Positions 1,806-63,041 are shown, counted from the first letter of the stretch. The stretch: 64,000 nt of DNA from Verrucomicrobiia bacterium (GCA_035501175.1 DATJWQ010000012.1:14424-78423); one strand, 5' to 3'. Numbers and translations: made by a program. Notes: generated by a model not told the origin, from the sequence alone.

Positions 1806-3470
1806 TTAACCTGCGGCCCGCGAATTCTCCCCCGGCGTTGTGCTTCCTAAAACCATCGCCAGCAGGATGCCGGCGAAGAATCCGCCCACGTGCGCAAGGT
1901 TGTCCACCTGAGGTTCCAATCCTCCGATCGTAAAATCCGCCGCCACCATCAACACCAATGCGAACAGCAGCCGTCGGCGCAACGCGGAGTACATCGGCGA
2001 CTGCAACCGCCACACGCCCACCGCAAACGCGCCGATCACCGCGAAGATGCCGCCGCTGGCGCCAATGGCCACATCGTAATGCGCCACCGACGCGCTTGCC
2101 AGGTTCCCAAGAGCGCCGCCGACCAGGAACACCACCAGCATCCGCCATCGTCCCATGGTCTTCTCCACCGCCGGTCCGAACAACCAGAGCCCCAAGCCGT
2201 TCAACCCGAGGTGCAGCAGGTTCGCGTGCAAAAACAACGCTGTGAACGCCCGCCACCATTCACCGTTCTTGATCGTCTCGGCGCTGTTCCCAGCCCATAT
2301 GAGAACTTTCTCCTGCATGTCCTCGCTCAGGAACGCGTCGAACACCAGATGCATCGTCGCCATTGCCAGTAGCAGCAACAATGTCACCAACTCCGGTCGC
2401 CCCATGTGCATCAGCGTGCGCCAGCCAGCCGAGTCCTTCTCCGCTCGCCGCAACAATTCCTGCCCGCGCACATAAGCCGGGTCCTGCGCCGCCCAAATCA
2501 CCGGCGTTTGTTCCCGCTCCGCCCGTTGCAGTTGCTCCCCGATCGCCTCACACCACAGGCGGTTCCCTCGATGCGTCAATCCAGATGCCTGCGTCAGCAT
2601 CCGCAGAGCGTCTTCCCGTTCGCCCCGCGCCAGCGCACACTGCCCGCGCCAGTACGCCGCGAATCTCGCAAATCGCCGGCCGTGCGTCGCAAATTCACTG
2701 TGGTTCAATAGTTCGTACAGGGTCTCGCGGTCGCCCGCCAGCGCCGTAACCGCCACGCGTGTCGCCCATAATTGCGTCTGCCGTGTGCCGACCGTCCGTG
2801 GCGACAACAACGCAAGCTGCAGGCTCCGCAGGGCGCGCTCAAACTGTCCCGTCTCAGCCAGCGCCCGAGCGGCAAGCAGTCGCGCCTGTGTTGCCAGCCC
2901 CAACATGCCCCAATCGTACACACTCTCGTAAAACTCCAGCGCCTGTCTCCACCTCCGCAGTGTGATCAGCAACGACAATTTCCAGAGGTGCACCAAACCG
3001 AACATGGACGGTGGCATCGGCCGGCGCCCCGGCTTTAATTCCGCGGGAATCAGAAGCTCCAATGCCCCGAGGGCTTCGTCGCACTCACCTCGCGCCATCA
3101 ATCGCAAAGCCGCGCCGTGGCGACGGTACAGCCGGCCCGTTTGTCCCCAAGTGAACCAACTCGCCAGTTGCCAGAACCTTGCGCTGCCCGGCCAACGCCC
3201 GCGTTGTTCCCGTCCCGTTGCCGCGGAGACCAGCGCCGGCGGGATGGCGACGAAGATCACGAACAATGCCGCCGAGACGATCACCCACACCCGATCGTAT
3301 TCGCGAAAGGAGGGATTGTAGCTGAAGCACAGCCCCCCGAGGCAGGCCAGCAGAATGACTCCCAATTGTCCGATCTGGGCCGCGTGCCAGCGACGGTCGT
3401 CCCTCAGCAACGGAACCAACTGCATCAGGGCGATAAACAGGATCGGATAAATGAAATAGCGTTGACTCAT
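1806..3470 (-). CDS. Rhomboid-family intramembrane serine protease with N-terminal TM segments and a TPR-like domain
   Basis: C-terminal rhomboid core with GASGGIFAVIGA (catalytic Ser) and LAHVGGFFAG (His), plus multiple TM helices. The middle helical-repeat region is rich in ALxxxG and R residues. Confidence 0.7.
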   Translation of the reverse strand: MSQRYFIYPILFIALMQLVPLLRDDRRWHAAQIGQLGVILLACLGGLCFSYNPSFREYDRVWVIVSAALFVIFVAIPPALVSAATGREQRGRWPGSARFWQLASWFTWGQTGRLYRRHGAALRLMARGECDEALGALELLIPAELKPGRRPMPPSMFGLVHLWKLSLLITLRRWRQALEFYESVYDWGMLGLATQARLLAARALAETGQFERALRSLQLALLSPRTVGTRQTQLWATRVAVTALAGDRETLYELLNHSEFATHGRRFARFAAYWRGQCALARGEREDALRMLTQASGLTHRGNRLWCEAIGEQLQRAEREQTPVIWAAQDPAYVRGQELLRRAEKDSAGWRTLMHMGRPELVTLLLLLAMATMHLVFDAFLSEDMQEKVLIWAGNSAETIKNGEWWRAFTALFLHANLLHLGLNGLGLWLFGPAVEKTMGRWRMLVVFLVGGALGNLASASVAHYDVAIGASGGIFAVIGAFAVGVWRLQSPMYSALRRRLLFALVLMVAADFTIGGLEPQVDNLAHVGGFFAGILLAMVLGSTTPGENSRAAG

Positions 3471-3538
3471 TGGAGGCCGTCAAAATGATGCAAATGCTGA
3501 AAACTGTCCCCAATGACCTTCGGCCCCAGTATCGTTCT

Positions 3539-4000
3539 TCACGGCACGATCACCACATCGTCGCCGATCTCCACCAAATCATACAACCTCTCGATCTGTT
3601 CCACGCTCATGGCAATACAGCCGTGCGTCCACGTCACATTTGGACAGGGCCCATGCAAGCCCACCTCGCCTCCCAGCGCTGTTTTCCAGGGTGGACACCT
3701 TTTCTCCATGATCGCGTCGCGAATCTCCTCATATTCGGCTTGCGTGATGATCTTCTCGCGTAGCCCGCGCTCCGCATCCTCGATGTTCGGATAGCTCAAT
3801 CCGAGAAATCGATGATACTTGCTCTCGGGGTTTTTGTAGCAAATGTAGAATTCGCCTTCCGGGGTCGCCAGATCGCCTTCACGCTGTTTATCCGCCGCGT
3901 TCTTCCCAATCACCACGGGAATCCGCAGCACCTCCTCCTCGCCGTCATACAACACCAGCGTTCTCGCGTGTTTCGTAATCACCAGCCGCCGCGCGCTCAT
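3539..4000 (-). CDS. L,D-transpeptidase (YkuD/ErfK family)
   Basis: Catalytic motif HGPCPNVTWTHGCIAMS (H...THGC) typical of the YkuD domain. Confidence 0.65.
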   Translation of the reverse strand: MSARRLVITKHARTLVLYDGEEEVLRIPVVIGKNAADKQREGDLATPEGEFYICYKNPESKYHRFLGLSYPNIEDAERGLREKIITQAEYEEIRDAIMEKRCPPWKTALGGEVGLHGPCPNVTWTHGCIAMSVEQIERLYDLVEIGDDVVIVP

Positions 4001-4244
4001 TACGCGGAATCCTGCCCACCCGTGCCACCCCGGTCAAGCCCGACATCATTCACCCCGCCAGCGGTCAAGCAAAGACTCATCTCGATTTGGCAGTGGAAAC
4101 CCTGCTGTCGGGAGTTTGAGTGAAGGTGAATACGTTGTCAGGAGAGCCCGAAATTTCGTTGACCCAATCCGATCCCGGGCTTACGCTGCCGCTGTGATGG
4201 CGGCCATTATGCTGCATCCCGTTCGATAACTTGGTACTTTCGCC

Positions 4245-5288
4245 ATGAAACTCTTTGCTGGGGTCGGCTTGATGCTGTCCGTGGCATTCGTCACTCCTTG
4301 CGGCGCCGTCCCTTCGCTTGATGACATCCTTGCGGCGATGAAGTACGCCGATGAACAGATCGGCGTCGTGAAGGTTGAGGGCTATATCCACGAATACCGG
4401 TGGGATGACACCAGCGCATCCCGGACTGTCACTCCGGAAACATCCACATTCACGCGCACGTACGAAAATAAACCGCAAGGCCCATACGTCCTGGATGAAC
4501 ATCCGACGGTCATGCGATGGAAAGACGGATCCGCTCCTTACTTGGCCGAGTGGAGAACACAATTTCGAGATTCCGACGGGTTTATCACGTGGTGGACTCG
4601 TACAAACCAATATCGCACGACCTTGCTCTCGTCCGTTACCCAGTGGTGGGACCACCCGTTGAAGCCTCACGACGATATTCCGTCTCCCCCTCGGTCGTTT
4701 ACAGTCAACAACGTGCGGCGTGGGAAGGTGTCGTCATTCTTGCAGTCAATGGCGGAACGCGTGGAGACAATGTACTCAGGCCTGGGCTTTACCACCCTGA
4801 AAGCCGCCCGTCGGACCCCGATTTGTTTTCCCGACCAATACCCGGGTATCGTGGTGTCTGATACCCCAGAGGGCATGACACAAATACAATACGTTTCACC
4901 GGACGTATGTGTGGCTTGGGATTTCATCCTCGATCCCAAAAAGAATTTTGCGCTCGTGCGTTATACCTATTCGCGGAATCGCGGGTTAACAACGACCGAC
5001 AACGAGATGACGATGACATACGAAGTTCGGGAGCACCGCCAGATTGCCGATGGCGTTTGGTATCCGGTTCGGTACACGACGAAAACTGAGTTTTCCGCGG
5101 AGTATGCAGCCGAGATGCTCTCACGCTATCCACCACCCCACGCGGACGAGTTGGACCCATACACATCCCAGGGAGAGGAAGTTGTCTTGACGAACGTTAT
5201 CATGTTGTCTGGTGCCGAGGCGGAAGCGAATCTCACCGTCAAACTACCCGATGGGCTGGATGTCATAGACGAAGACGCCCGCCAATAG
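4245..5288 (+). CDS. Hypothetical secreted protein
   Basis: N-terminal signal peptide MKLFAGVGLMLSVAFVTPCGA. Long ORF with coding-like composition and no recognisable motifs. Confidence 0.5.
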   Translation: MKLFAGVGLMLSVAFVTPCGAVPSLDDILAAMKYADEQIGVVKVEGYIHEYRWDDTSASRTVTPETSTFTRTYENKPQGPYVLDEHPTVMRWKDGSAPYLAEWRTQFRDSDGFITWWTRTNQYRTTLLSSVTQWWDHPLKPHDDIPSPPRSFTVNNVRRGKVSSFLQSMAERVETMYSGLGFTTLKAARRTPICFPDQYPGIVVSDTPEGMTQIQYVSPDVCVAWDFILDPKKNFALVRYTYSRNRGLTTTDNEMTMTYEVREHRQIADGVWYPVRYTTKTEFSAEYAAEMLSRYPPPHADELDPYTSQGEEVVLTNVIMLSGAEAEANLTVKLPDGLDVIDEDARQ

Positions 5289-5358
5289 ACATCGAGACAA
5301 GCTGCTCGATTCAATTCGGACCCGTTGCCTTGTCTGCCTTCTTCTCCCGCTCCCGCCG

Positions 5359-5387
5359 TTGACATTCTAACGAGCTATACCTATATT
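5359..5387 (+). promoter_or_regulatory. Sigma70-like promoter of the Rrf2-apbC operon (-35 TTGACA, 17-nt spacer, -10 TATATT)
   Basis: TTGACA at 5359-5364 and TATATT at 5382-5387, about 40 nt upstream of the Rrf2 start codon. Confidence 0.5.
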
Positions 5388-5395
5388 GGCGCAGA

Positions 5396-5420
5396 AAACA
5401 AGACAAACTGAGTCCGATTT
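5396..5420 (+). promoter_or_regulatory. Candidate Rrf2/IscR-type operator (25-bp dyad AAACAAGACAAACTGAGTCCGATTT, GAC-N7-GTC core)
   Basis: Lies between the -10 element and the Rrf2 start codon. It matches the motif upstream of sufC (62734-62758) at about 20 of 24 positions. The GAC-N7-GTC spacing equals the IscR type-1 core. Confidence 0.5.
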
Positions 5421-5425
5421 AACAC

Positions 5426-5884
5426 ATGCAAGTCACACGGGCAGGAGAATACGCAATCATTGGCCTGTTGTACCTCGCTAAACAACCAGCGGGGCGCACG
5501 GTCATGATCGACGAAATCAGCGAGGCCGAAGGCGTCCCGAAGAGTTTTCTGGCGAAGATTTTCCAGTCTCTCGCCAAAGGTGGCTTTGTGCTCTCCCATC
5601 GCGGCGCGGGCGGTGGATTCAGTCTCGCCAGGACCCCGGCCGAGATCACCCTCCTGCGCATCCTCCAATGCGTCGAAGGCGTCTTCGCCCTGCAGAAATG
5701 CGTCACCGACGATCCGGAGTGCGTCGTCTCAGTCACCCGCATGAGCAGTTGCACGCTCTGTGCCGTCTTCACCGAGGCACAGAACCGCGTCAATGAACTC
5801 TTTGCGCGCACCACTCTTGCTGATCTTCTGCAACCCAAACCGGCCGCCGTCCAGCCGGTCAAACCTGTTCCAGCGGTGAATTGA
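5426..5884 (+). CDS. Rrf2-family transcriptional regulator (IscR/NsrR-like, three-Cys Fe-S ligand set)
   Basis: N-terminal wHTH YAIIGLLYLAKQ...SFLAKIFQSLAKGGFVLSHRGAGGGFSLAR typical of Rrf2. Cys cluster CVEG..C..C in the C-terminal half. Confidence 0.8.
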   Translation: MQVTRAGEYAIIGLLYLAKQPAGRTVMIDEISEAEGVPKSFLAKIFQSLAKGGFVLSHRGAGGGFSLARTPAEITLLRILQCVEGVFALQKCVTDDPECVVSVTRMSSCTLCAVFTEAQNRVNELFARTTLADLLQPKPAAVQPVKPVPAVN

Positions 5885-5890
5885 GGCAGC

Positions 5891-6970
5891 ATGTCCGGCC
5901 GCGTTGAGCACCCCTTGAGCGAGGAGCAGGTTCGCGAACTCCTCAAGCAAATCAAGTTTCCCGGTTTCAGCCGCGATATCGTCAGCTTCGGCATCGTCCG
6001 TTCCGTGACCATCACTGAGAATAATGACGTAGCGGTCGCGTTGCACGTCATGACCCGCGATCCCGAAGTGCCCCGACACATCCAGCGCGATGTCGAATCT
6101 ATTCTCCGCGCCCATGACGGCATTGGACGAATCGACGTTCAAATGACCGCGCAACAACCGCCGCAACAGGGCCAGATGCCGATGGCTGGCGCGGGCGGCG
6201 TGCCGGCACGTCCGCAGATTGACGGCGTGAAACACATTGTGGCGGTCGGCAGCGGCAAAGGCGGGGTGGGCAAATCCACCGTCGCGGTCAATCTTGCCTG
6301 CGCCCTCGCCAAACTCGAGCAGCGCATCGGCATTATGGACGCCGATATCTATGGCCCGAGCGTGCCCAAAATGATGGGCGCGGTCCATCGTCCGACCATT
6401 ACTGAGGACAAACTCGATCCCGTCGAGAATTTCGGCCTGAAAATGATGAGCATGGCCCTTCTGCTCGACAACGATTCCCCCGTGATCTGGCGCGGCCCGA
6501 TGATCATGAAGGCCATTCGACAATTCAGTCTCGCCGTCAATTGGGGTGAGCTCGATGTACTGGTCGTCGACCTGCCGCCGGGCACCGGCGACGCACAGCT
6601 TTCCCTCGTCCAGACCATCGCGCTCGACGGCGGCGTGATCGTCACCACGCCCCAGGACGTGGCGCTCGAGGTCGCGCGTCGCGGCATCGCCATGTTCGAG
6701 AAGGTCAACGTGAAGATCCTCGGCATCATCGAGAACATGAGCTACTACGTCTGCCCGCATTGCGGCGAACACGACGATGTATTTGGCCACGGCGGCGGCA
6801 AACAGGAAGCCGCCCGACTCGAGGTCCCGTTTCTTGGTGAAGTCCCGCTGTTCTCCGACATTCGCGTTTGCGGCGACAAAGGCGTGCCCATTGTTGTCGC
6901 CGAGCCCGATAGCGACCCTGCCAAGGCCTTCCTGCGTTGCGCTGAATCCGTTTTCCGTCAACTAACGTGA
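5891..6970 (+). CDS. apbC: Mrp/NBP35 (ApbC) Fe-S cluster carrier ATPase with N-terminal DUF59/MIP18 domain
   Basis: Walker A VAVGSGKGGVGKSTVAVNLA, CPHCGE (CxxC) motif, N-terminal DUF59-like region. 7 nt downstream of the Rrf2 gene, consistent with an operon. Confidence 0.8.
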   Translation: MSGRVEHPLSEEQVRELLKQIKFPGFSRDIVSFGIVRSVTITENNDVAVALHVMTRDPEVPRHIQRDVESILRAHDGIGRIDVQMTAQQPPQQGQMPMAGAGGVPARPQIDGVKHIVAVGSGKGGVGKSTVAVNLACALAKLEQRIGIMDADIYGPSVPKMMGAVHRPTITEDKLDPVENFGLKMMSMALLLDNDSPVIWRGPMIMKAIRQFSLAVNWGELDVLVVDLPPGTGDAQLSLVQTIALDGGVIVTTPQDVALEVARRGIAMFEKVNVKILGIIENMSYYVCPHCGEHDDVFGHGGGKQEAARLEVPFLGEVPLFSDIRVCGDKGVPIVVAEPDSDPAKAFLRCAESVFRQLT

Positions 6971-6981
6971 GCGGTGATTCC

Positions 6982-8604
6982 TCAGGGTTGTTTCGCTTTC
7001 AATCGGGCCAGCGCATCCCGCGCCTTGGCGTAATCGGGATTGATCCGTAGCGCCATTTCGTATTGTTCGACCGCTTCCTGCGTCCGGCCCATTTGCGCCA
7101 GAGCGATACCCAGATTCAGATGCGCCTTCGCGTAGTTCGGGTAAAGTCGTAGCGCCTGTTTGTACTCCTGAATCGCCTCGGAAACGTTGCCTGCCTGAAA
7201 GAACGTTACGCCCGCAATATGGTGTGCTTCGGCGTGATACTCGACGCTGGATAACAGATTGAAGGCCACCGAAAAAACCAGGAGGGCGCCCCACGCCCCG
7301 CGCACTACGAACCTCAAAACTGTTCGGTCGGCCAATGCGCGTTCCAAACCGAGAACGCCCGTCGCAGCCAACAATACGAGCGCGGGCACGAATTCTACTT
7401 CGTATCGCACCGACGTGTAGTAAAACATCCCAATCGTCAGCGCTTCGATTCCAAAGAATAGTGTCACCGCCGCCAGAAACCAGCGCAACACCGCGCTCGC
7501 GTCCGCCGTCCGATGCAGACACGCCAGCGGTGCGGCCAGCGCCAGCCACACGAACGGCATATTCGCCAGTACTCCCAACGGCGCTTCCACATTTCCGTGC
7601 CCCGCCGGTGGGAGCGGCGCCGCCATCCTCTGGACAAACGGAAACCGCGCGCTCCAGCCCACCGATTTCAGAAAATACATGCGGAGATTGAACAACAGAT
7701 AACTCGCGTGGAAGTCCTCCACTGAACCCGAGGGCCGGTCTCCCGACAACAGGTAGCTCACGCCAAATTCGAATGGACTCCCAAACCGCCGCGCGTTGTA
7801 GATCATGACTCCAAGTCCGATCACCAACATCGGCGTTGCCGCCGTCACCAGTAACAGCCAGATTCGTCGCCGTTCAACCAGCGCCCGGACCACCGGCACC
7901 AGCAGGATGACCGCGCCGAGCACCAGGGAGGGCCGCGCCCCCACTGCCAGCCCATAGGCCAGGCTCGCCACCACCAGCCATCGACCGCACCGCTTTGGTT
8001 CATGTAGCGCGGACCACATCGCCGCCAGGGTCACCATCGCCAGCATGTACGCGCAACAAATGGGCACTTGGTATACATCGGCCTGTGACAATACCACGGG
8101 TACGCCTGTCGCCAACCCAAGTGCCAGGATACAAGTTTCCACCACCCAGATGCTCACGTCGCCAAAGTAGCGCCGCCACAACGCGTATAGTAACCCTGCG
8201 TTCGTCAGAAAACCGACCGCACAGAAAATCGCCACTGCTTCCCGATGCCACAGGTACCGGCCCGTTAGCGCTACAAATGGCCAGAACAACATCACGGCGG
8301 GCGTGACGCCGTGATACAGATACAGCCGACCATGGTAGTAGCTCAGATCGTGAAATCGGTACGGCAGCAACCGATACGTCGCGTTGGCCGCCGGGTCGTA
8401 CGGGTCCGACAATTGCGTGAGCCCGGGCGGGACCTCTTTGTCCAAACTGAGATGTCCGGCGCGAAAGCCGCGCACGAGCAAATTGTAATAGGTGTCCGCC
8501 CGGCTCGGGCTGAGCAGTTCCAGCAGACCCGACTGGCTTAGATACGCGTAGGCGCCGATCACCAACCCGCACACCACAAGCAGGTACGGCCATCCCCTTT
8601 TCAT
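6982..8604 (-). CDS. Polytopic membrane protein with C-terminal TPR repeats (GT-C/PMT-ArnT-like glycosyltransferase candidate)
   Basis: More than 10 predicted TM helices followed by TPR repeats (AIQEYKQALRLYPNYAKAHLNLGIALAQMGRTQEAVEQYEMALRINPDYAKA). The GT-C assignment is inferred from architecture only. Confidence 0.45.
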   Translation of the reverse strand: MKRGWPYLLVVCGLVIGAYAYLSQSGLLELLSPSRADTYYNLLVRGFRAGHLSLDKEVPPGLTQLSDPYDPAANATYRLLPYRFHDLSYYHGRLYLYHGVTPAVMLFWPFVALTGRYLWHREAVAIFCAVGFLTNAGLLYALWRRYFGDVSIWVVETCILALGLATGVPVVLSQADVYQVPICCAYMLAMVTLAAMWSALHEPKRCGRWLVVASLAYGLAVGARPSLVLGAVILLVPVVRALVERRRIWLLLVTAATPMLVIGLGVMIYNARRFGSPFEFGVSYLLSGDRPSGSVEDFHASYLLFNLRMYFLKSVGWSARFPFVQRMAAPLPPAGHGNVEAPLGVLANMPFVWLALAAPLACLHRTADASAVLRWFLAAVTLFFGIEALTIGMFYYTSVRYEVEFVPALVLLAATGVLGLERALADRTVLRFVVRGAWGALLVFSVAFNLLSSVEYHAEAHHIAGVTFFQAGNVSEAIQEYKQALRLYPNYAKAHLNLGIALAQMGRTQEAVEQYEMALRINPDYAKARDALARLKAKQP

Positions 8605-8735: not shown

Positions 8736-9056
8736 ATGGCCGTTACCGAGGAACAATTGATCGCGAAATTGAAAGAGTGCTACGACCCTGAGATTCCGTG
8801 CAATATTGTGGACCTTGGCCTCGTGTATGACGTTCGACGTGAACCCGTCGCCGGCACCTCCGACACGCGCGTGGATGTGAAAATGACTCTTACTTCGCCG
8901 GGGTGCCCGCTGGCAGGGCAGATCTCCGCCCAGGTCCAACGCAAGCTGCTCGAACTCCCCGGCGTCGGCGAAGCCAATGTCGAGGTCGTCACCGACCCGC
9001 CGTGGTCGCTCTCTCGCGTCACACCTGACGGCAAGAAGCTGCTCGGGTTGCCATAA
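8736..9056 (+). CDS. DUF59/MIP18-family Fe-S cluster assembly protein (SufT/PaaD-like)
   Basis: EEQLIAKLKECYDPEIPCNIVDLGLVYDV signature of the DUF59 family. Confidence 0.7.
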   Translation: MAVTEEQLIAKLKECYDPEIPCNIVDLGLVYDVRREPVAGTSDTRVDVKMTLTSPGCPLAGQISAQVQRKLLELPGVGEANVEVVTDPPWSLSRVTPDGKKLLGLP

Positions 9057-57933: not shown

Positions 57934-59205
57934 TCAATACCCCATCGCGCGGCCGGTCGGACAGGCGCCAAAGAACTTCTTGGCCTTGTGCAGCATTTCG
58001 ATGAAGGCATCGACTTCGTCGCGCGTGTTGTACAAGTAAAAGCTGGCGCGCGCGGTGGCGGCGAGCCCGAGCTTCTTGTGCAACGGCATGGCGCAATGAT
58101 GCCCGGCGCGGATGGCGACGCCATCCTGGTCGGCAAACGTCGCGATGTCATGCGGGTGGACATCGCCAAGAGTGAACGCGATCAAGCCGCCGCGTTTCTC
58201 GATGTCCTTTGGGCCGTACACGGTGATTTCGGGAAACTCCTTCAGGCAATCCAGTGCGTACTGCGTGATTTCCTTCTCGTGCTGGCGAATTTTCTCCATG
58301 CCGATGTGCGTGAGGTAATCGACTGCAACGCCGAGTCCGATGGATTCCGCGATGTTTGGCGTGCCGGCCTCGAATTTGTAGGGCAGATCGTTGTATTTCG
58401 CGTGATCAAACCACACTTCCTTGATCATCTCGCCGCCGCCCATGAATGGCGGCATTGCCTCGAGAAGCGGGCGTTTGCCGTAGAGCACCCCGCTGGCGGT
58501 CGGCCCGCACATCTTGTGTCCGCTGAACGCGAAGAAATCACAATCCATTGCCTGCACATCGACTGCCATGTGAGGAACACTCTGCGCGCCGTCCACGAGC
58601 ACGACAGCCCCGCTCTTGTGGGCGGCGTCGGCGATTTGCCGGACGGGATTGATCGTGCCCAGGACATTGGACTGTTGCGTGACCGCCACGAGTTTCGTGC
58701 GGTCGGTGAGCAGCCTGTCCAGATCATCAAGGCGCAACGTGCCGTCTGCATTCAGTTCGATCCGTTTGATGACTGCGCCCGTGCGCTCGCAGACCTGATA
58801 CCACGGCACGGTATCGCTGTGGTGCTCCATGAATGTCGTGAGAATCTCATCGCCCTTCTTCAGGTTGGTCAGCGCCCAGGAATAGGCCACGAGATTGATC
58901 GACTCGGTTGTGCCACGGGTATAAATAGCCAGTTCCGTCGACGGTGCATTAATGAATTTCGCAATCTTCTCTCTCGCGCGCTCATACTCCCGCGTCGCGC
59001 GTTCGGCCAAGGCGTGGATGCCGCGATGAACGTTGGCATTGTAGCGCTGATAATAATCGTTGAGCGCCTCGATCACGACCCGCGGCTTCTGCGAGGTCGC
59101 CGCATTATCGAAATAGATCAGGGGTTTGCCGTGGACTTTCTGACGCAGGACCGGAAAGTCGTCGCGGATTTCCTCCAACTCCACCGCATCGAGGACCTCA
59201 ATCAT
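57934..59205 (-). CDS. sufS: Cysteine desulfurase SufS
   Basis: FPVLRQKVHGKPLIYFDNAATSQKP N-terminus, PLP-lysine region SGHKMCGPTASG, and active-site HHCAMP. Confidence 0.85.
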   Translation of the reverse strand: MIEVLDAVELEEIRDDFPVLRQKVHGKPLIYFDNAATSQKPRVVIEALNDYYQRYNANVHRGIHALAERATREYERAREKIAKFINAPSTELAIYTRGTTESINLVAYSWALTNLKKGDEILTTFMEHHSDTVPWYQVCERTGAVIKRIELNADGTLRLDDLDRLLTDRTKLVAVTQQSNVLGTINPVRQIADAAHKSGAVVLVDGAQSVPHMAVDVQAMDCDFFAFSGHKMCGPTASGVLYGKRPLLEAMPPFMGGGEMIKEVWFDHAKYNDLPYKFEAGTPNIAESIGLGVAVDYLTHIGMEKIRQHEKEITQYALDCLKEFPEITVYGPKDIEKRGGLIAFTLGDVHPHDIATFADQDGVAIRAGHHCAMPLHKKLGLAATARASFYLYNTRDEVDAFIEMLHKAKKFFGACPTGRAMGY

Positions 59206-60440
59206 CCCTTGCGTACTACCTTATCGTGAACCAGCCTGGCAAACTCCTTTTGCACGCTCTCGACCTGGATGCGTGACAGCACCGGCTCCAGAAACGCCTC
59301 GATCAACACGTCCCGCGCCAGTTCGGGCGTCAGGCCGCGACTCCGCAGGTAGAAGAGCTGCTCCTCTTCCAATTGCCCGACGGTCGCTCCGTGCGTGCAA
59401 CGAAGCTGGTTCGATTCGATCTCCAGAATCGGTCGGGTATCGCAACGTACTTCCTTGTTGAGCACGAGGTTGCGGTTGGCCTGGTAGGCATTTGTGCCGT
59501 TGGCGTTCTTCTCGACTTTGATCACGCCGGCGTAATTACTGACGGCAGAATCGCGCAACACGTTCTTGAACAACAGATCGCTGGTCGTGTTGCCCGTTTT
59601 GTGGTGCTGCTTGGTAAACTGGCCAAATTGCTGGTTGTGATCGAGCACCCCGACCGCATACATGAAGCTCGTGCCGCCTTCGCCTTCCATGATGCACTGC
59701 ACGTCGTACCGCTGGAACGAGGCGCCGAACATGCCGAGCACCCAGTCGATCTCCGCGTCATGAGCGACGTGCGCGCGTTTGAGCGTGAAATCGTACACGT
59801 TGGGCGAGAAATTCTGCTCGCTGATGTAATGGAGATGCCCGCTGTCTTTGAGGAACACCTCGGTGCCGCTGGCGTGAATGCTCGGCGCGCCATTCGTGCC
59901 GACCGGTGGTCCGCCCACGAACTTCTGCACGAGCGTCGCCTCCGCGCCCGGCTCGACAACGACCAACGTGTGGGAGAAGCCCGCAATGTTCTGCCCCGCG
60001 AGTTCGTAGGTCACTTCCAGCGGCTGGTCGATGCGAACATCCGCGGGCACATACAGGAACGCGCCACTTTTCCACAGCGCGGTATGCAACGCGGCGAACT
60101 TCGCCGGCTCGTCCGCCCCGATGCTCTTGCCCAGATACTCCTTCAGAACATCGCCGTGCCTGGCAACCGCCGTGACCATGTCGCAGAAGATCACACCCTT
60201 CCTGTCCAATTCAGCAGAGAGCGCAGAAAGACGCTCGTGAATGGCCGGCTTGCCGTCGGGCAACGACACCTTGTCCAGTTTGAGTGCGCGGATATCGAAT
60301 CGCTGCCATTCCAAATCCCGCCTGGTCGGCAGGGGAAGCTTTTCGAATGTGTTCCACGCGTTGAGACGCCGGGACCTCAACCATGCCGGCTCGCCGGAGC
60401 CGACGGCTTCGAGTGTCTGCTGTGTAAATCCAGTTGTCAT
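59202..60440 (-). CDS. sufD: Fe-S cluster assembly protein SufD
   Basis: Paralogous to SufB, position between sufB and sufS, and a 4-nt overlap with sufS. Start taken at MTTGFTQQT. Confidence 0.8.
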   Translation of the reverse strand: MTTGFTQQTLEAVGSGEPAWLRSRRLNAWNTFEKLPLPTRRDLEWQRFDIRALKLDKVSLPDGKPAIHERLSALSAELDRKGVIFCDMVTAVARHGDVLKEYLGKSIGADEPAKFAALHTALWKSGAFLYVPADVRIDQPLEVTYELAGQNIAGFSHTLVVVEPGAEATLVQKFVGGPPVGTNGAPSIHASGTEVFLKDSGHLHYISEQNFSPNVYDFTLKRAHVAHDAEIDWVLGMFGASFQRYDVQCIMEGEGGTSFMYAVGVLDHNQQFGQFTKQHHKTGNTTSDLLFKNVLRDSAVSNYAGVIKVEKNANGTNAYQANRNLVLNKEVRCDTRPILEIESNQLRCTHGATVGQLEEEQLFYLRSRGLTPELARDVLIEAFLEPVLSRIQVESVQKEFARLVHDKVVRKG

Positions 60441-60505
60441 CGTAAATTGGGGTGGGGGACGGGGCCACACCGTCCCCCACGGGTTCTCGATCAGCCGTTG
60501 CCCAT

Positions 60506-61912
60506 CTACCCGACTGATCCTTCCATCTGCAAGTTGATGAGTCGATTGATTTCAACCGCGAATTCCATGGGCAATTCCTTCACGATCGGCTCAATGAAAC
60601 CGTTCACGATCATCGATACCGCGTCTTCTTTCTTGATACCGCGGCTCATGAGATAGAAGAGCTGTTCCTCCGAGACATTCGAAACGCTTGCCTCGTGTTC
60701 CACCGTCGCGAGGTCGCCGTCGATCTCCATCACGGGATACGTGTCGGAACGGCTGATCGGATCGAGGATCAACGCGTCGCAATTGACCTGCACGCGGCAA
60801 TTCTTGGCCGCCTCGTTCACCTGAACCAGACCGCGGTACGAGGACCGTCCGCCGTGGCCACTGATCGACTTGGAATTGATCCGGCCGGTGCAATTCGGCG
60901 CGTGGAACACCAGCTTCGCGCCGGCATCCTGCCACATGCCTTTGTCGGCGCTGGCGAGGCTGAGGATTTCGCCGTGAGCCCCTTCGCCGACCATGTAGCA
61001 CGACGGATATTTGACCGTGCGTTTCGAGCCGAGGTTGCCATCGACCCATTCCATGACGGCGTTCTTGTACAGATACGCCCGCTTGGTCACGAGGTTGTAA
61101 ACGTCGGTTGACCAATTCTGGATCGTCGTGTAACGGCACCGGGCCCGGTCTTTCACGAAGATTTCAACGACAGCCGAGTGGAGTGAGTTGGTGGTGTACA
61201 CCGGCGCACTGCAGCCCTCGACGTAATGGCAGAAGCTGTCATCTTCACAAATGATGAGCGTGCGCTCGAACTGGCCGAACTGCTCGGCATTGATACGGAA
61301 GTAGACCGAGAGGGGAATGTCGCATTTTACGCCCTTCGGAATGTACACGAACGAACCGCCGCTCCAGAACGCCGAGTTGAGCGCCGCGAACTTGTTGTCC
61401 TCGGGCGGAATCGACTTGGCGAAGTGTTCCTGGAAGATGTCGGGGTACTGCTTCAAGCCATCATCGCAACTGAGGAAGATGACGCCCTTCTTGGCGAGCG
61501 ACTCCTGGATGTTGTGATACGCCATCTCGCTGTCGATCTGTGCGCCGAGACCGCCAAGGAGCTTCTGTTCTTCCTTGGCGATCCCGAGCTTGTCGTACGT
61601 GCGGCGGATTTCCTCGGGCACGTCCTCCCAGCGGCGCGCCGATTTCTCGACGGGACTGACGTAATAGGTAATTTCTTCGTAATTGAGCTCGTCCCGCAAC
61701 CCGGGCAGCCATTCCGGCAAGCCCTGGCTGATGAACAAATCGAGGCTGCGATGGCGAAACTGGCGCATCCAATCCGGTTCGCCCTTGATATCGCACATGT
61801 AATCCACAACATCGTGCGAGAGTCCTTTCGGGACCCTGTGAACGGCCTTCAGATTGTCGTGGAAGCCTTCCTTGTAGGCGCCACCCAAAATGGGTTCCGC
61901 GGGAGTGCTCAT
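60506..61912 (-). CDS. sufB: Fe-S cluster assembly protein SufB
   Basis: Characteristic SufB length (468 aa) and conserved C-terminal beta-helix region (EQLFYLMSRGI). Overlaps sufC by 4 nt. Confidence 0.85.
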   Translation of the reverse strand: MSTPAEPILGGAYKEGFHDNLKAVHRVPKGLSHDVVDYMCDIKGEPDWMRQFRHRSLDLFISQGLPEWLPGLRDELNYEEITYYVSPVEKSARRWEDVPEEIRRTYDKLGIAKEEQKLLGGLGAQIDSEMAYHNIQESLAKKGVIFLSCDDGLKQYPDIFQEHFAKSIPPEDNKFAALNSAFWSGGSFVYIPKGVKCDIPLSVYFRINAEQFGQFERTLIICEDDSFCHYVEGCSAPVYTTNSLHSAVVEIFVKDRARCRYTTIQNWSTDVYNLVTKRAYLYKNAVMEWVDGNLGSKRTVKYPSCYMVGEGAHGEILSLASADKGMWQDAGAKLVFHAPNCTGRINSKSISGHGGRSSYRGLVQVNEAAKNCRVQVNCDALILDPISRSDTYPVMEIDGDLATVEHEASVSNVSEEQLFYLMSRGIKKEDAVSMIVNGFIEPIVKELPMEFAVEINRLINLQMEGSVG

Positions 61913-62691
61913 GTGCCCTGACCTTTCGCCACGGCGGGAGCCGCCGCATCCTCATCCTTGATGATCCAATCGTAGCCGTGCTCTTCCAGGTGAGCGGCCA
62001 GATCCGGTCCGCCTGACTTCACGATCTTGCCGTCGACCAGGATGTGAACGAAATCCGGATTGATGTAACGCAGAATGCGTTCGTAGTGGGTGATGATCAG
62101 AATGCCCAGCCCCGGCCCGCGCAACTCGTTCACGCCACGCGAGACAATCTTCAGCGCATCGATGTCGAGGCCCGAGTCCGTCTCGTCCATGACCGCGAAC
62201 TCAGGTTCGAGCATCATCATTTGCAAAATCTCGTTGCGCTTCTTTTCGCCGCCCGAAAAGCCCTCGTTCAGATACCGTTTCAAGAACTTCTCGTCGATGT
62301 CGAGGACCTTCATTTTCTCCTCGAGCTTGCTGTAAAACTCCGTGACCTCCATCTCGCGTCCCGTACGCGCATTACAGGCGAGCCGAAGGAAATTGGACTG
62401 GCGGACGCCCGGGACCTCGCACGGATATTGAAACGCGAGGAACAATCCTTTACGGGCGCGCTCGTCGGTCTCCATTTCGAGGATGTCCTCGCCTTTCATG
62501 AGGACCTTGCCGCCGGTGACCGTATACTTCGGATGGCCCAACAGCGCGTTCGCGAGCGTGCTTTTTCCAGAGCCGTTCGGCCCCATGAGCGCATGGACCT
62601 CGCCCTTGCGGACGACGAGATCGACGCCCTTGAGAATCTCGCGTTCCTCGATACTGACATGTAAGTCCTGAATCTCGAATGTATCAGTCAT
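61909..62691 (-). CDS. sufC: Fe-S cluster assembly ATPase SufC
   Basis: Walker A GPNGSGKSTL, ABC signature LSGGEKKR, and Walker B. Start taken at MTDTFEIQD. Confidence 0.85.
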   Translation of the reverse strand: MTDTFEIQDLHVSIEEREILKGVDLVVRKGEVHALMGPNGSGKSTLANALLGHPKYTVTGGKVLMKGEDILEMETDERARKGLFLAFQYPCEVPGVRQSNFLRLACNARTGREMEVTEFYSKLEEKMKVLDIDEKFLKRYLNEGFSGGEKKRNEILQMMMLEPEFAVMDETDSGLDIDALKIVSRGVNELRGPGLGILIITHYERILRYINPDFVHILVDGKIVKSGGPDLAAHLEEHGYDWIIKDEDAAAPAVAKGQGT

Positions 62692-62733
62692 GATGATCGA
62701 CTTTCTCAAACTGAGGTCGGACGAGCCTCACGT

Positions 62734-62758
62734 AAACACGACAAATTTTGTCCGATTC
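62734..62758. promoter_or_regulatory. Candidate Rrf2/IscR-type operator upstream of sufC (AAACACGACAAATTTTGTCCGATTC, GAC-N7-GTC palindrome core)
   Basis: 13-bp perfect palindrome GACAAATTTTGTC. About 20 of 24 positions match the motif at 5396-5420. Lies immediately downstream of the predicted -10. Confidence 0.5.
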
Positions 62759-62793: not shown

Positions 62794-62853
62794 GCGCGCA
62801 ACGTATAACGCGCCTGCCGCCAGAGAATGGCGTTCCGACTGGAGGGAAGACCG

Positions 62854-62888
62854 TTGCCCGTCAAGCCACGCATGAGCTTGACGGGCAA
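62854..62888. other. Perfect 12-bp inverted repeat (TTGCCCGTCAAG-N11-CTTGACGGGCAA), hairpin between the His-rich peptide gene and the suf promoter
   Basis: Visible directly in the sequence. There is no flanking U-tract, so it may be a rho-independent-like attenuator, a protein-binding site, or an insulating terminator. Confidence 0.5.
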
Positions 62889-62906: not shown

Positions 62907-63041
62907 TTACTTGGCTTGGTGGTGGCGCAGGTGATGATGACGCTTGGCGTGGTGACGGTGCGTGCTGGTTGCCGCAAACGCGCCTGTTGTGAACATGCCA
63001 AATACCACCGCTGCCAAAAGAAGCCCCATGAACTTTCGCAT
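62907..63041 (-). CDS. Small secreted His-rich peptide (45 aa)
   Basis: MRKFMGLLLAAVVFGMFTTGAFAATSTHRHHAKRHHHLRHHQAK. Strong SD AGGAGACAGATCGGT-ATG, a signal peptide, and 9 His in the last 17 residues. Confidence 0.55.
   Translation of the reverse strand: MRKFMGLLLAAVVFGMFTTGAFAATSTHRHHAKRHHHLRHHQAK

Follow-up and report, generated by a model that had tools for sequence, protein, structure and literature searches.

Genomic setting of the rrf2-apbC and suf operons

The DNA analysed here is a stretch of 64,000 nucleotides (hereafter the window) from an uncultured member of the Verrucomicrobiia. Its nearest Rrf2 loci in public genomes come from peat, bog and soil MAGs. The window carries a gene for an Rrf2-type regulator, a gene for an Fe-S carrier immediately behind it and, 57 kb away from the regulator gene, a suf operon on the opposite strand. 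The relevant genes are as follows.

5426-5884, plus strand: rrf2, encoding a winged-helix regulator of 152 aa (PF02082, E=1e-33)
5891-6970, plus strand: apbC/mrp, encoding a P-loop Fe-S carrier that has a DUF59 domain at its N terminus (PF10609, E=1e-100; ApbC model, 304 bits)
6982-8604, minus strand: convergent gene for a 540-aa TPR/membrane protein, separating apbC from the DUF59/SufT-like gene
8736-9056, plus strand: DUF59/SufT-like gene, without an operator of its own
61909-62691, minus strand: sufC (TIGR01978, 362 bits)
60506-61912, minus strand: sufB (TIGR01980, 639 bits)
59202-60470, minus strand: sufD, start codon uncertain (TIGR01981, 227 bits)
57934-59205, minus strand: sufS (TIGR01979, 612 bits)
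57438-57908, minus strand: gene for a DUF2721 membrane protein, between sufS and sufU
56634-57062, minus strand: sufU, distal gene of the suf cluster
56228-56614, minus strand: DUF2203 gene, after sufU

The gap between rrf2 and apbC is 6 nt, from which we read that the two genes are cotranscribed. We compared the locus with 37 orthologous verrucomicrobial rrf2 loci whose regulators share 50-88% protein identity. apbC directly follows rrf2 in 33 of these 37 loci, so that the pairing, which the original prediction had described as atypical, is instead the norm of the lineage. A DUF59/SufT-like gene comes immediately after apbC in 17 loci; the window and loci L004-L006 have it 1.3-1.8 kb further on. 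The window copy, having no operator, may no longer belong to the regulon. A different arrangement is found in three deep-branching loci (about 3000-5900), with rrf2-nifU-nifS in L033 and L035 and rrf2-nifS in L034; both L034 and L035 also have apbC, at a more distal position. This arrangement may be the ancestral form of the rrf2-apbC operon. From the gene orders, rrf2-apbC looks like the remnant of an isc/nif-type operon after loss of the desulfurase and the scaffold, which would back an IscR-like functional reading of the regulator. The hallmark of IscR, to head an isc operon, is absent from the window, where rrf2 heads apbC, and nifU or nifS follow the regulator gene only in L033-L035.

At the suf end, the 375-nt gap before sufU (57063-57437) holds no strong promoter or operator, and for the distal DUF2721, sufU and DUF2203 genes together neither a strong promoter nor an operator of their own was found. 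The sole Rfam match in the window is a tRNA gene at 54242-54328.

Two matching dyads lie just downstream of the rrf2 and suf -10 boxes

Both operons are preceded by a near-consensus promoter and a 25-bp dyad.

5359-5364, plus strand: -35 hexamer of the rrf2-apbC promoter, TTGACA
5382-5387, plus strand: -10 hexamer of the rrf2-apbC promoter, TATATT, with a 17-nt spacer to the -35 hexamer
5396-5420, no strand assigned: candidate operator O(rrf2), 25-bp dyad AAACAAGACAAACTGAGTCCGATTT, arms AAACAAGAC-N7-GTCCGATTT
62793-62788, minus strand: -35 hexamer of the suf promoter, TTGACA
62771-62766, minus strand: -10 hexamer of the suf promoter, TATAGT, with a 16-nt spacer to the -35 hexamer
62734-62758, no strand assigned: candidate operator O(suf), 25-bp dyad AAACACGACAAATTTTGTCCGATTC, in gene orientation GAATCGGAC-N7-GTCGTGTTT
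62717-62722, minus strand: isolated extra half-site GTCCGA, in the suf leader and 11 nt past O(suf)

The two promoters are the sole sigma-70-like matches of 11/12 in their regions. Both dyads were found exactly where they had been predicted, downstream of the -35 and -10 hexamers; the distance from the -10 box is 8 nt for O(rrf2) and 7 nt for O(suf), instead of the 8-9 nt originally given. O(rrf2) ends 5 nt before the ATG, in a leader that has no Shine-Dalgarno sequence. Across related loci the dyad likewise begins 7-9 nt after a near-consensus -10 box. With a start 7-8 nt past this box, the dyads of the window would span roughly +1 to +25 relative to the predicted start sites, which is the position of a repressor.

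O(rrf2) and O(suf) are identical at 20 of 25 positions. When the bases common to both were made into a degenerate pattern, with at most three mismatches allowed, it matched these two dyads and nothing else on either strand of the 64 kb, and had no match in 100 dinucleotide-preserving shuffles. Two dyads in 64 kb with none expected rule out a chance similarity, an explanation rejected on the shuffle counts and on the matrix scores given below.

The two dyads align with each other on the plus strand. Because the suf operon is transcribed from the minus strand, the asymmetric dyad faces opposite ways with respect to transcription at the two promoters, as expected of a site in duplex DNA. The consensus of the dyad is AAAnnRGAS-N7-STCYnnTTT, in which G7, A8, T18 and C19 never vary and the terminal AAA and TTT hardly do. 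The half-sites are consistently unequal, one reading AAATCGGA(C/G) and the other AAA(C/T)A(A/C)GAC; the stronger of the two lies away from the promoter at rrf2 and next to it at suf. This inequality is not accounted for by a simple homodimer model.

The extra half-site GTCCGA in the suf leader is kept only in the closest relatives (SufC at least 89% identical). As RNA it can pair with the AATCGGAC of the operator in the predicted minimum-energy fold, a fold that is not significant (z = 0.0).

The dyad is conserved upstream of rrf2

In 33 of the 37 orthologous loci the dyad is present between a TTGAC-N17-TATATT promoter and the ATG. Among the 37 loci TTGAC is conserved and TATATT is nearly invariant. 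Judged by information per position, the arms of the dyad are kept constant, while its central N7, the spacer of the promoter and the DNA preceding the -35 box vary between loci. Even the orthologs of L033-L035, which share only 50-53% identity with the window protein, have the same dyad upstream.

A weight matrix was trained on 27 distinct sites that lie ahead of rrf2 in other genomes, with the window's own sequences excluded. Scanned along the window, the matrix scored 38.3 bits at 5396-5420 and 29.3 bits at 62734-62758; the next best position of the window reached 8.2 bits, and the best score in 50 shuffles was 17.4 bits. Scored on the opposite strand, both sites still reached about 18 bits, a sign of the dyad symmetry. 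A search for more operators gave nothing above 8.2 bits in the rest of the window, the regions ahead of sufU and of the DUF59/SufT-like gene included, and no further site above 13-14 bits was found in about 236 kb of rrf2 flanks together with the suf flanks.

The four loci without the dyad (L027 and L030-L032) retain the promoter, the cysteines and the recognition helix of the regulator; a displaced operator was sought in them and not found, the best score being 4.8 bits. In these rrf2-apbC-DUF59 operons the ATG stands only 7-10 nt after the -10 box (about 2900-3006), so that the mRNA is possibly leaderless. Autoregulation has apparently been lost in this sub-clade and the regulator may be constitutively expressed; the four loci without a site imply that autoregulation is dispensable.

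The dyad is conserved upstream of related suf operons

A metagenome search with SufC gave 80 loci, 41 with SufC at least 75% identical and 39 with SufC at most 67% identical to that of the window. In 40 of the 41 closer loci a site of 17-35 bits was present 9-41 nt upstream of sufC, and it was the sole match above 14 bits in each locus (up to 8.8 kb long). About 36 of these 40 show the layout cTTGACa-N16/17-TATAGT-N7-dyad, as in the window. The 39 distant loci, which have the sufCDSUB order of other phyla, served as the negative control and contained no site above 16 bits. The expectation that a matrix search upstream of Fe-S genes would find the motif again was therefore borne out when the search was done comparatively across related loci (40/41 versus 0/39).

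The one related suf locus without the dyad is L080 (560-770). There a same-strand ORF ending in ...HHEFTLRGLCPRCAAG precedes sufC; it may encode a Fur-family regulator that has taken the place of Rrf2 control.

An Rrf2-superfamily regulator distinct from IscR proper

Superfamily membership of the 152-aa protein was clear from PF02082 (116.7 bits, cut-off 30) and TIGR00738 (113 bits, cut-off 73.3), and its relatives in the PDB are the IscR proteins of T. potens and E. coli, RsrR, CymR and NsrR. Many homologs carry the JGI pipeline label 'Rrf2 family iron-sulfur cluster assembly transcriptional regulator'. None of the models for individual regulators was reached. The IscR models gave 68.8 bits against a cut-off of 207.55 (TIGR02010) and 50.9 against 275 (NF008110), the model for the Xanthomonas-type SUF regulator gave 66.3 against 110.65 (TIGR02944), and those for RirA, NsrR and CymR gave 76.8 against 193, 55 against 182 and 50.2 against 195, respectively. 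The identities IscR, RirA, NsrR, CymR and Xanthomonas SUF regulator were rejected on these NCBIfam cut-offs.

The cluster ligands of IscR are Cys92, Cys98, Cys104 and His107 (PMC3899308). The numbering of the E. coli IscR sequence used for comparison fits the ligands in PMC3899308, and its N-terminal half fits PDB 4hf0. The window protein has five cysteines, not the three originally counted; C92, C99, C109 and C112 are invariant in the 37 orthologs and C82 is variable. The four invariant residues align to C92, C98, C104 and H107 of IscR, so that a cysteine stands in place of the histidine ligand, with a spacing of C-X6-C-X9-C-X2-C versus X5/X5/X2 for the IscR ligands. Glu8 is also invariant in the orthologs, at the position of the ligands Asp8 of NsrR and Glu8 of RsrR.

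Ser40, Arg59 and the GxxGGG wing are retained. At the Glu43 position the window protein has Ala, as has every one of the 37 orthologs, and Gln44 is replaced by Lys. In E. coli, Glu43 bars apo-IscR from type-1 sites (PMC3899308). With Ala at this position and an altered ligand set, neither the cluster type nor the apo/holo switch of IscR can be transferred by homology. The protein is thus, as judged from its sequence, a member of the Rrf2 superfamily that is not IscR proper: the equivalog models remain far below their cut-offs, His107 is a cysteine and Glu43 an alanine.

Comparison with known operators and regulators

As predicted, the core spacing of the dyads equals that of the IscR type-1 site, whose consensus is ATASYYGACTRWWWYAGTCRRSTAT (PMC3899308), with GAC-N7-GTC in both. 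The two dyads match the E. coli consensus at 16 and 17 of 25 positions, which places them in the top 0.14% and 0.03% of the window's 25-mers; 180 other 25-mers of the window, counted on both strands, match it equally well. The E. coli type-1 consensus was therefore rejected as a search model, as it does not discriminate at 16-17/25. The dyads of the window are type-1-like in architecture and, as sequences, probably not type-1 sites.

Another experimentally defined operator is that of RisR from Myxococcus xanthus, which in its holo form represses isc and suf; its DNase footprint T(t/g)GAC-N7-GTCC(t/a), with AT-rich flanks, lies over the -10 box and the start site (PMC9973013). Both sites of the window contain GAC-N7-GTCC, as do 35 of 40 related suf sites; the exact flanking T(t/g) and (t/a) of RisR are unmatched, and the placement of the dyads directly past the -10 box is comparable to that of the RisR site. 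The closest experimentally defined operator is RisR's as much as the IscR type-1 site.

The system shares with the IscR of E. coli and Pseudomonas, which represses its own iscRSUA operon from type-1 sites, the Rrf2 winged helix, three equivalently placed cysteines and a 25-bp GAC-N7-GTC dyad with A/T-rich ends, and it would also share negative autoregulation tied to Fe-S supply. Unlike IscR, the regulator is paired with apbC rather than iscSUA, falls below the IscR cut-offs and has Cys for His107 and Ala for Glu43. Moreover, apo-IscR of E. coli activates suf from an upstream type-2 site, whereas here suf bears the same repressor-type site as rrf2.

RisR, which belongs to group IS6, is similar as a single cysteine-bearing Rrf2 repressor of its own Fe-S operon and of suf, the arrangement proposed here, and it also lacks the base-contact residues Glu43 and Gln44 of IscR (PMC9973013). 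The RisR gene heads a full isc operon, whereas the regulator of the window heads apbC(-sufT), and the RisR cysteines are C92, C102 and C108 versus C92, C99, C109 and C112 here. The verrucomicrobial Rrf2 proteins sampled by Sourice et al. (2023) fall in group IS2, together with CymR (PMC9973013, Table S3). Groups IS2-IS5 are experimentally uncharacterised and their Fe-S binding is unproven, and three conserved cysteines are held in the same study to suggest cluster binding strongly (PMC9973013).

Alphaproteobacterial IscR (Caulobacter, Rhodobacter) and the Xanthomonas-type regulator of TIGR02944 are likewise Rrf2 repressors of suf. In those systems the regulator gene lies inside the suf operon, whereas here it is remote and paired with a carrier gene. 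The cyanobacterial and actinobacterial SufR is an analogous Fe-S-binding, autoregulating repressor of sufBCDS, with unrelated folds (DeoR or ArsR type) and a different operator. A Rhodospirillales rrf2-sufBC locus (L039, about 2930-3000), a distant hit, likewise shows GAC-N7-GTC, in the dyad CAGGACCCAAATGGTCTGG directly ahead of its -10 box, which suggests that the core spacing is widely common to suf-linked Rrf2 regulators.

A model for shared control of Fe-S biogenesis

We consider it likely that the dyad is the operator of the adjacent Rrf2 protein, that this protein represses both operons, and that the Fe-S-loaded form is the one most likely to bind. That one Rrf2 repressor serves rrf2-apbC and suf through a shared dyad, as had been proposed, is supported by the comparative genomics of the two loci (33/37 and 40/41). 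Binding of Rrf2 to the dyads, repression, the Fe-S cluster and the holo protein as binding form are what we infer from these patterns.

In the proposed mechanism an Rrf2 dimer would sit on the dyad with one recognition helix in each GAC/GTC arm and its wings in the A/T flanks. Bound at about +1 to +25, the dimer would exclude or trap RNA polymerase, and no productive complex would form. The regulator would thereby repress sufCBDS(-sufU) and, by negative autoregulation, its own operon rrf2-apbC (in ancestral form rrf2-apbC-sufT). The Fe-S-loaded form would be the one that binds and represses; when lack of iron or oxidative damage cuts the supply of clusters, the apo form would leave the DNA, and SUF together with the ApbC/SufT carriers would be induced. 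For a repressor of Fe-S assembly genes, binding as holo protein and departure as apo protein is the sole logic that gives homeostatic feedback, and it parallels that of RisR and of IscR at type-1 sites.

A more far-reaching version of this model is possible, though we hold it doubtful: the regulator would represent a separate verrucomicrobial Rrf2 subfamily, probably IS2, for which the present sites are the first operator and regulon, with an all-Cys candidate ligand set (C-X6-C-X9-C-X2-C) plus Glu8, no Glu43 switch, a coupling of SUF to ApbC/SufT instead of a scaffold operon, and flipped half-sites whose differing affinities rank the derepression of the operons. The equality of its GAC-N7-GTC core with those of IscR and RisR would then suggest that this recognition is ancestral to the Rrf2 regulators of Fe-S biogenesis, although these are thought to have been recruited independently.

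Alternative explanations

Among the rival readings, the one that survives best keeps the operator and the regulator and changes the signal, the cysteines forming a thiol, redox, quinone or NO switch or a structural metal site instead of reporting Fe-S occupancy. In that case it would be oxidative or nitrosative stress itself that induces SUF and ApbC. The Rrf2 family offers precedents, as SifR and HypR are cluster-less and NsrR is a sensor of NO. The scores below the IscR, RirA and NsrR cut-offs fit this reading, as do the departures in the ligand set (Cys for His107, C-X6-C-X9-C-X2-C, Ala for Glu43), and the placement of verrucomicrobial Rrf2 proteins in IS2 beside CymR, among groups with unproven Fe-S binding, points the same way (PMC9973013). 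It is harder to reconcile with the targets, which are exclusively Fe-S assembly and carrier genes, with three invariant cysteines that align exactly to the universal cluster ligands of Rrf2 proteins, and with deeper relatives that head nifU-nifS operons; three conserved cysteines are also a strong argument for cluster binding (PMC9973013). On balance we judge a signal other than Fe-S occupancy to be improbable.

Far less probable still is that another transcription factor occupies the dyad and that its adjacency to rrf2 is coincidental. The four rrf2 loci without the site would fit this reading, and the link between Rrf2 and the dyad comes from sequence comparison. Yet the dyad accompanies rrf2 in 33 of 37 genomes, including those with orthologs only 50% identical, and a 25-bp GAC-N7-GTC dyad with A/T flanks is the very architecture footprinted for Rrf2 proteins. 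Autoregulation is, moreover, the rule in this family, which favours the neighbouring regulator as the binding protein.

Activation of suf by a bound apo form, in the manner of E. coli IscR at Psuf, has a marginally smaller chance again. The Ala at the Glu43 position is what could permit it, since in E. coli IscR this change would allow apo binding to type-1-like sites. At both promoters, however, the site lies past the -10 box and over the predicted start, which is incompatible with class I/II activation, and promoters matching the consensus at 11/12 positions should need no activator.

A role of the conserved sequence as RNA, that is, as a 5' UTR hairpin controlling translation or stability, has a negligible chance and was rejected: although both sites would be transcribed if the predicted promoters are right, and the rrf2 leader lacks a Shine-Dalgarno sequence, with the dyad ending 5 nt ahead of the ATG, folding is no better than that of shuffles (z = +1.1, 0.0, -0.06 and -0.9; -1.1 kcal/mol for site 1), compensatory covariation is missing (for example, 8 of 28 rrf2 sites have a Watson-Crick pair at positions 9/17 versus 12.8 expected), the flip of the asymmetric motif would make the two RNAs differ, and the dyads match no Rfam family.

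Significance of the locus and neighbouring observations

Repression of both operons by the adjacent, probably Fe-S-loaded Rrf2 protein would amount to a circuit of known type, as seen with RisR and with IscR at type-1 sites; it is a solid inference, unsurprising in kind, and leaves the current picture unchanged. Its interest lies in the lineage. We found no literature on the regulation of Fe-S biogenesis in Verrucomicrobiota, nor on an operator, a regulon or an apbC-sufT pairing for the phylum; the literature searches turned up only the phylogenomic placement of its Rrf2 proteins (PMC9973013). The Rrf2 groups that adjoin Fe-S genes, besides IscR and RisR, are described in the same study as uncharacterised (PMC9973013). 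For an abundant, uncultured lineage of peat and soil, the locus supplies a candidate operator, a core regulon of two operons and a conserved promoter layout. Annotation of MAGs could use the operator as a search model, and in metatranscriptomes it could mark iron or oxidative stress. The locus is also a data point on whether GAC-N7-GTC recognition is common to independently recruited Rrf2 regulators.

Two further features lie next to the suf promoter. A long, GC-rich, terminator-like inverted repeat occupies about 62848-62888, between the suf -35 box and the following small ORF.

62907-63041, minus strand: 44-aa ORF (MRKFMGLLLAAVVFGMFTTGAFAATSTHRHHAKRHHHLRHHQAK), immediately upstream of the suf promoter, with a signal-peptide-like start and a His-rich tail

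The ORF is kept at suf in 10 related metagenome loci, with 57-89% identity, and its product may be a small periplasmic metal-binding peptide.
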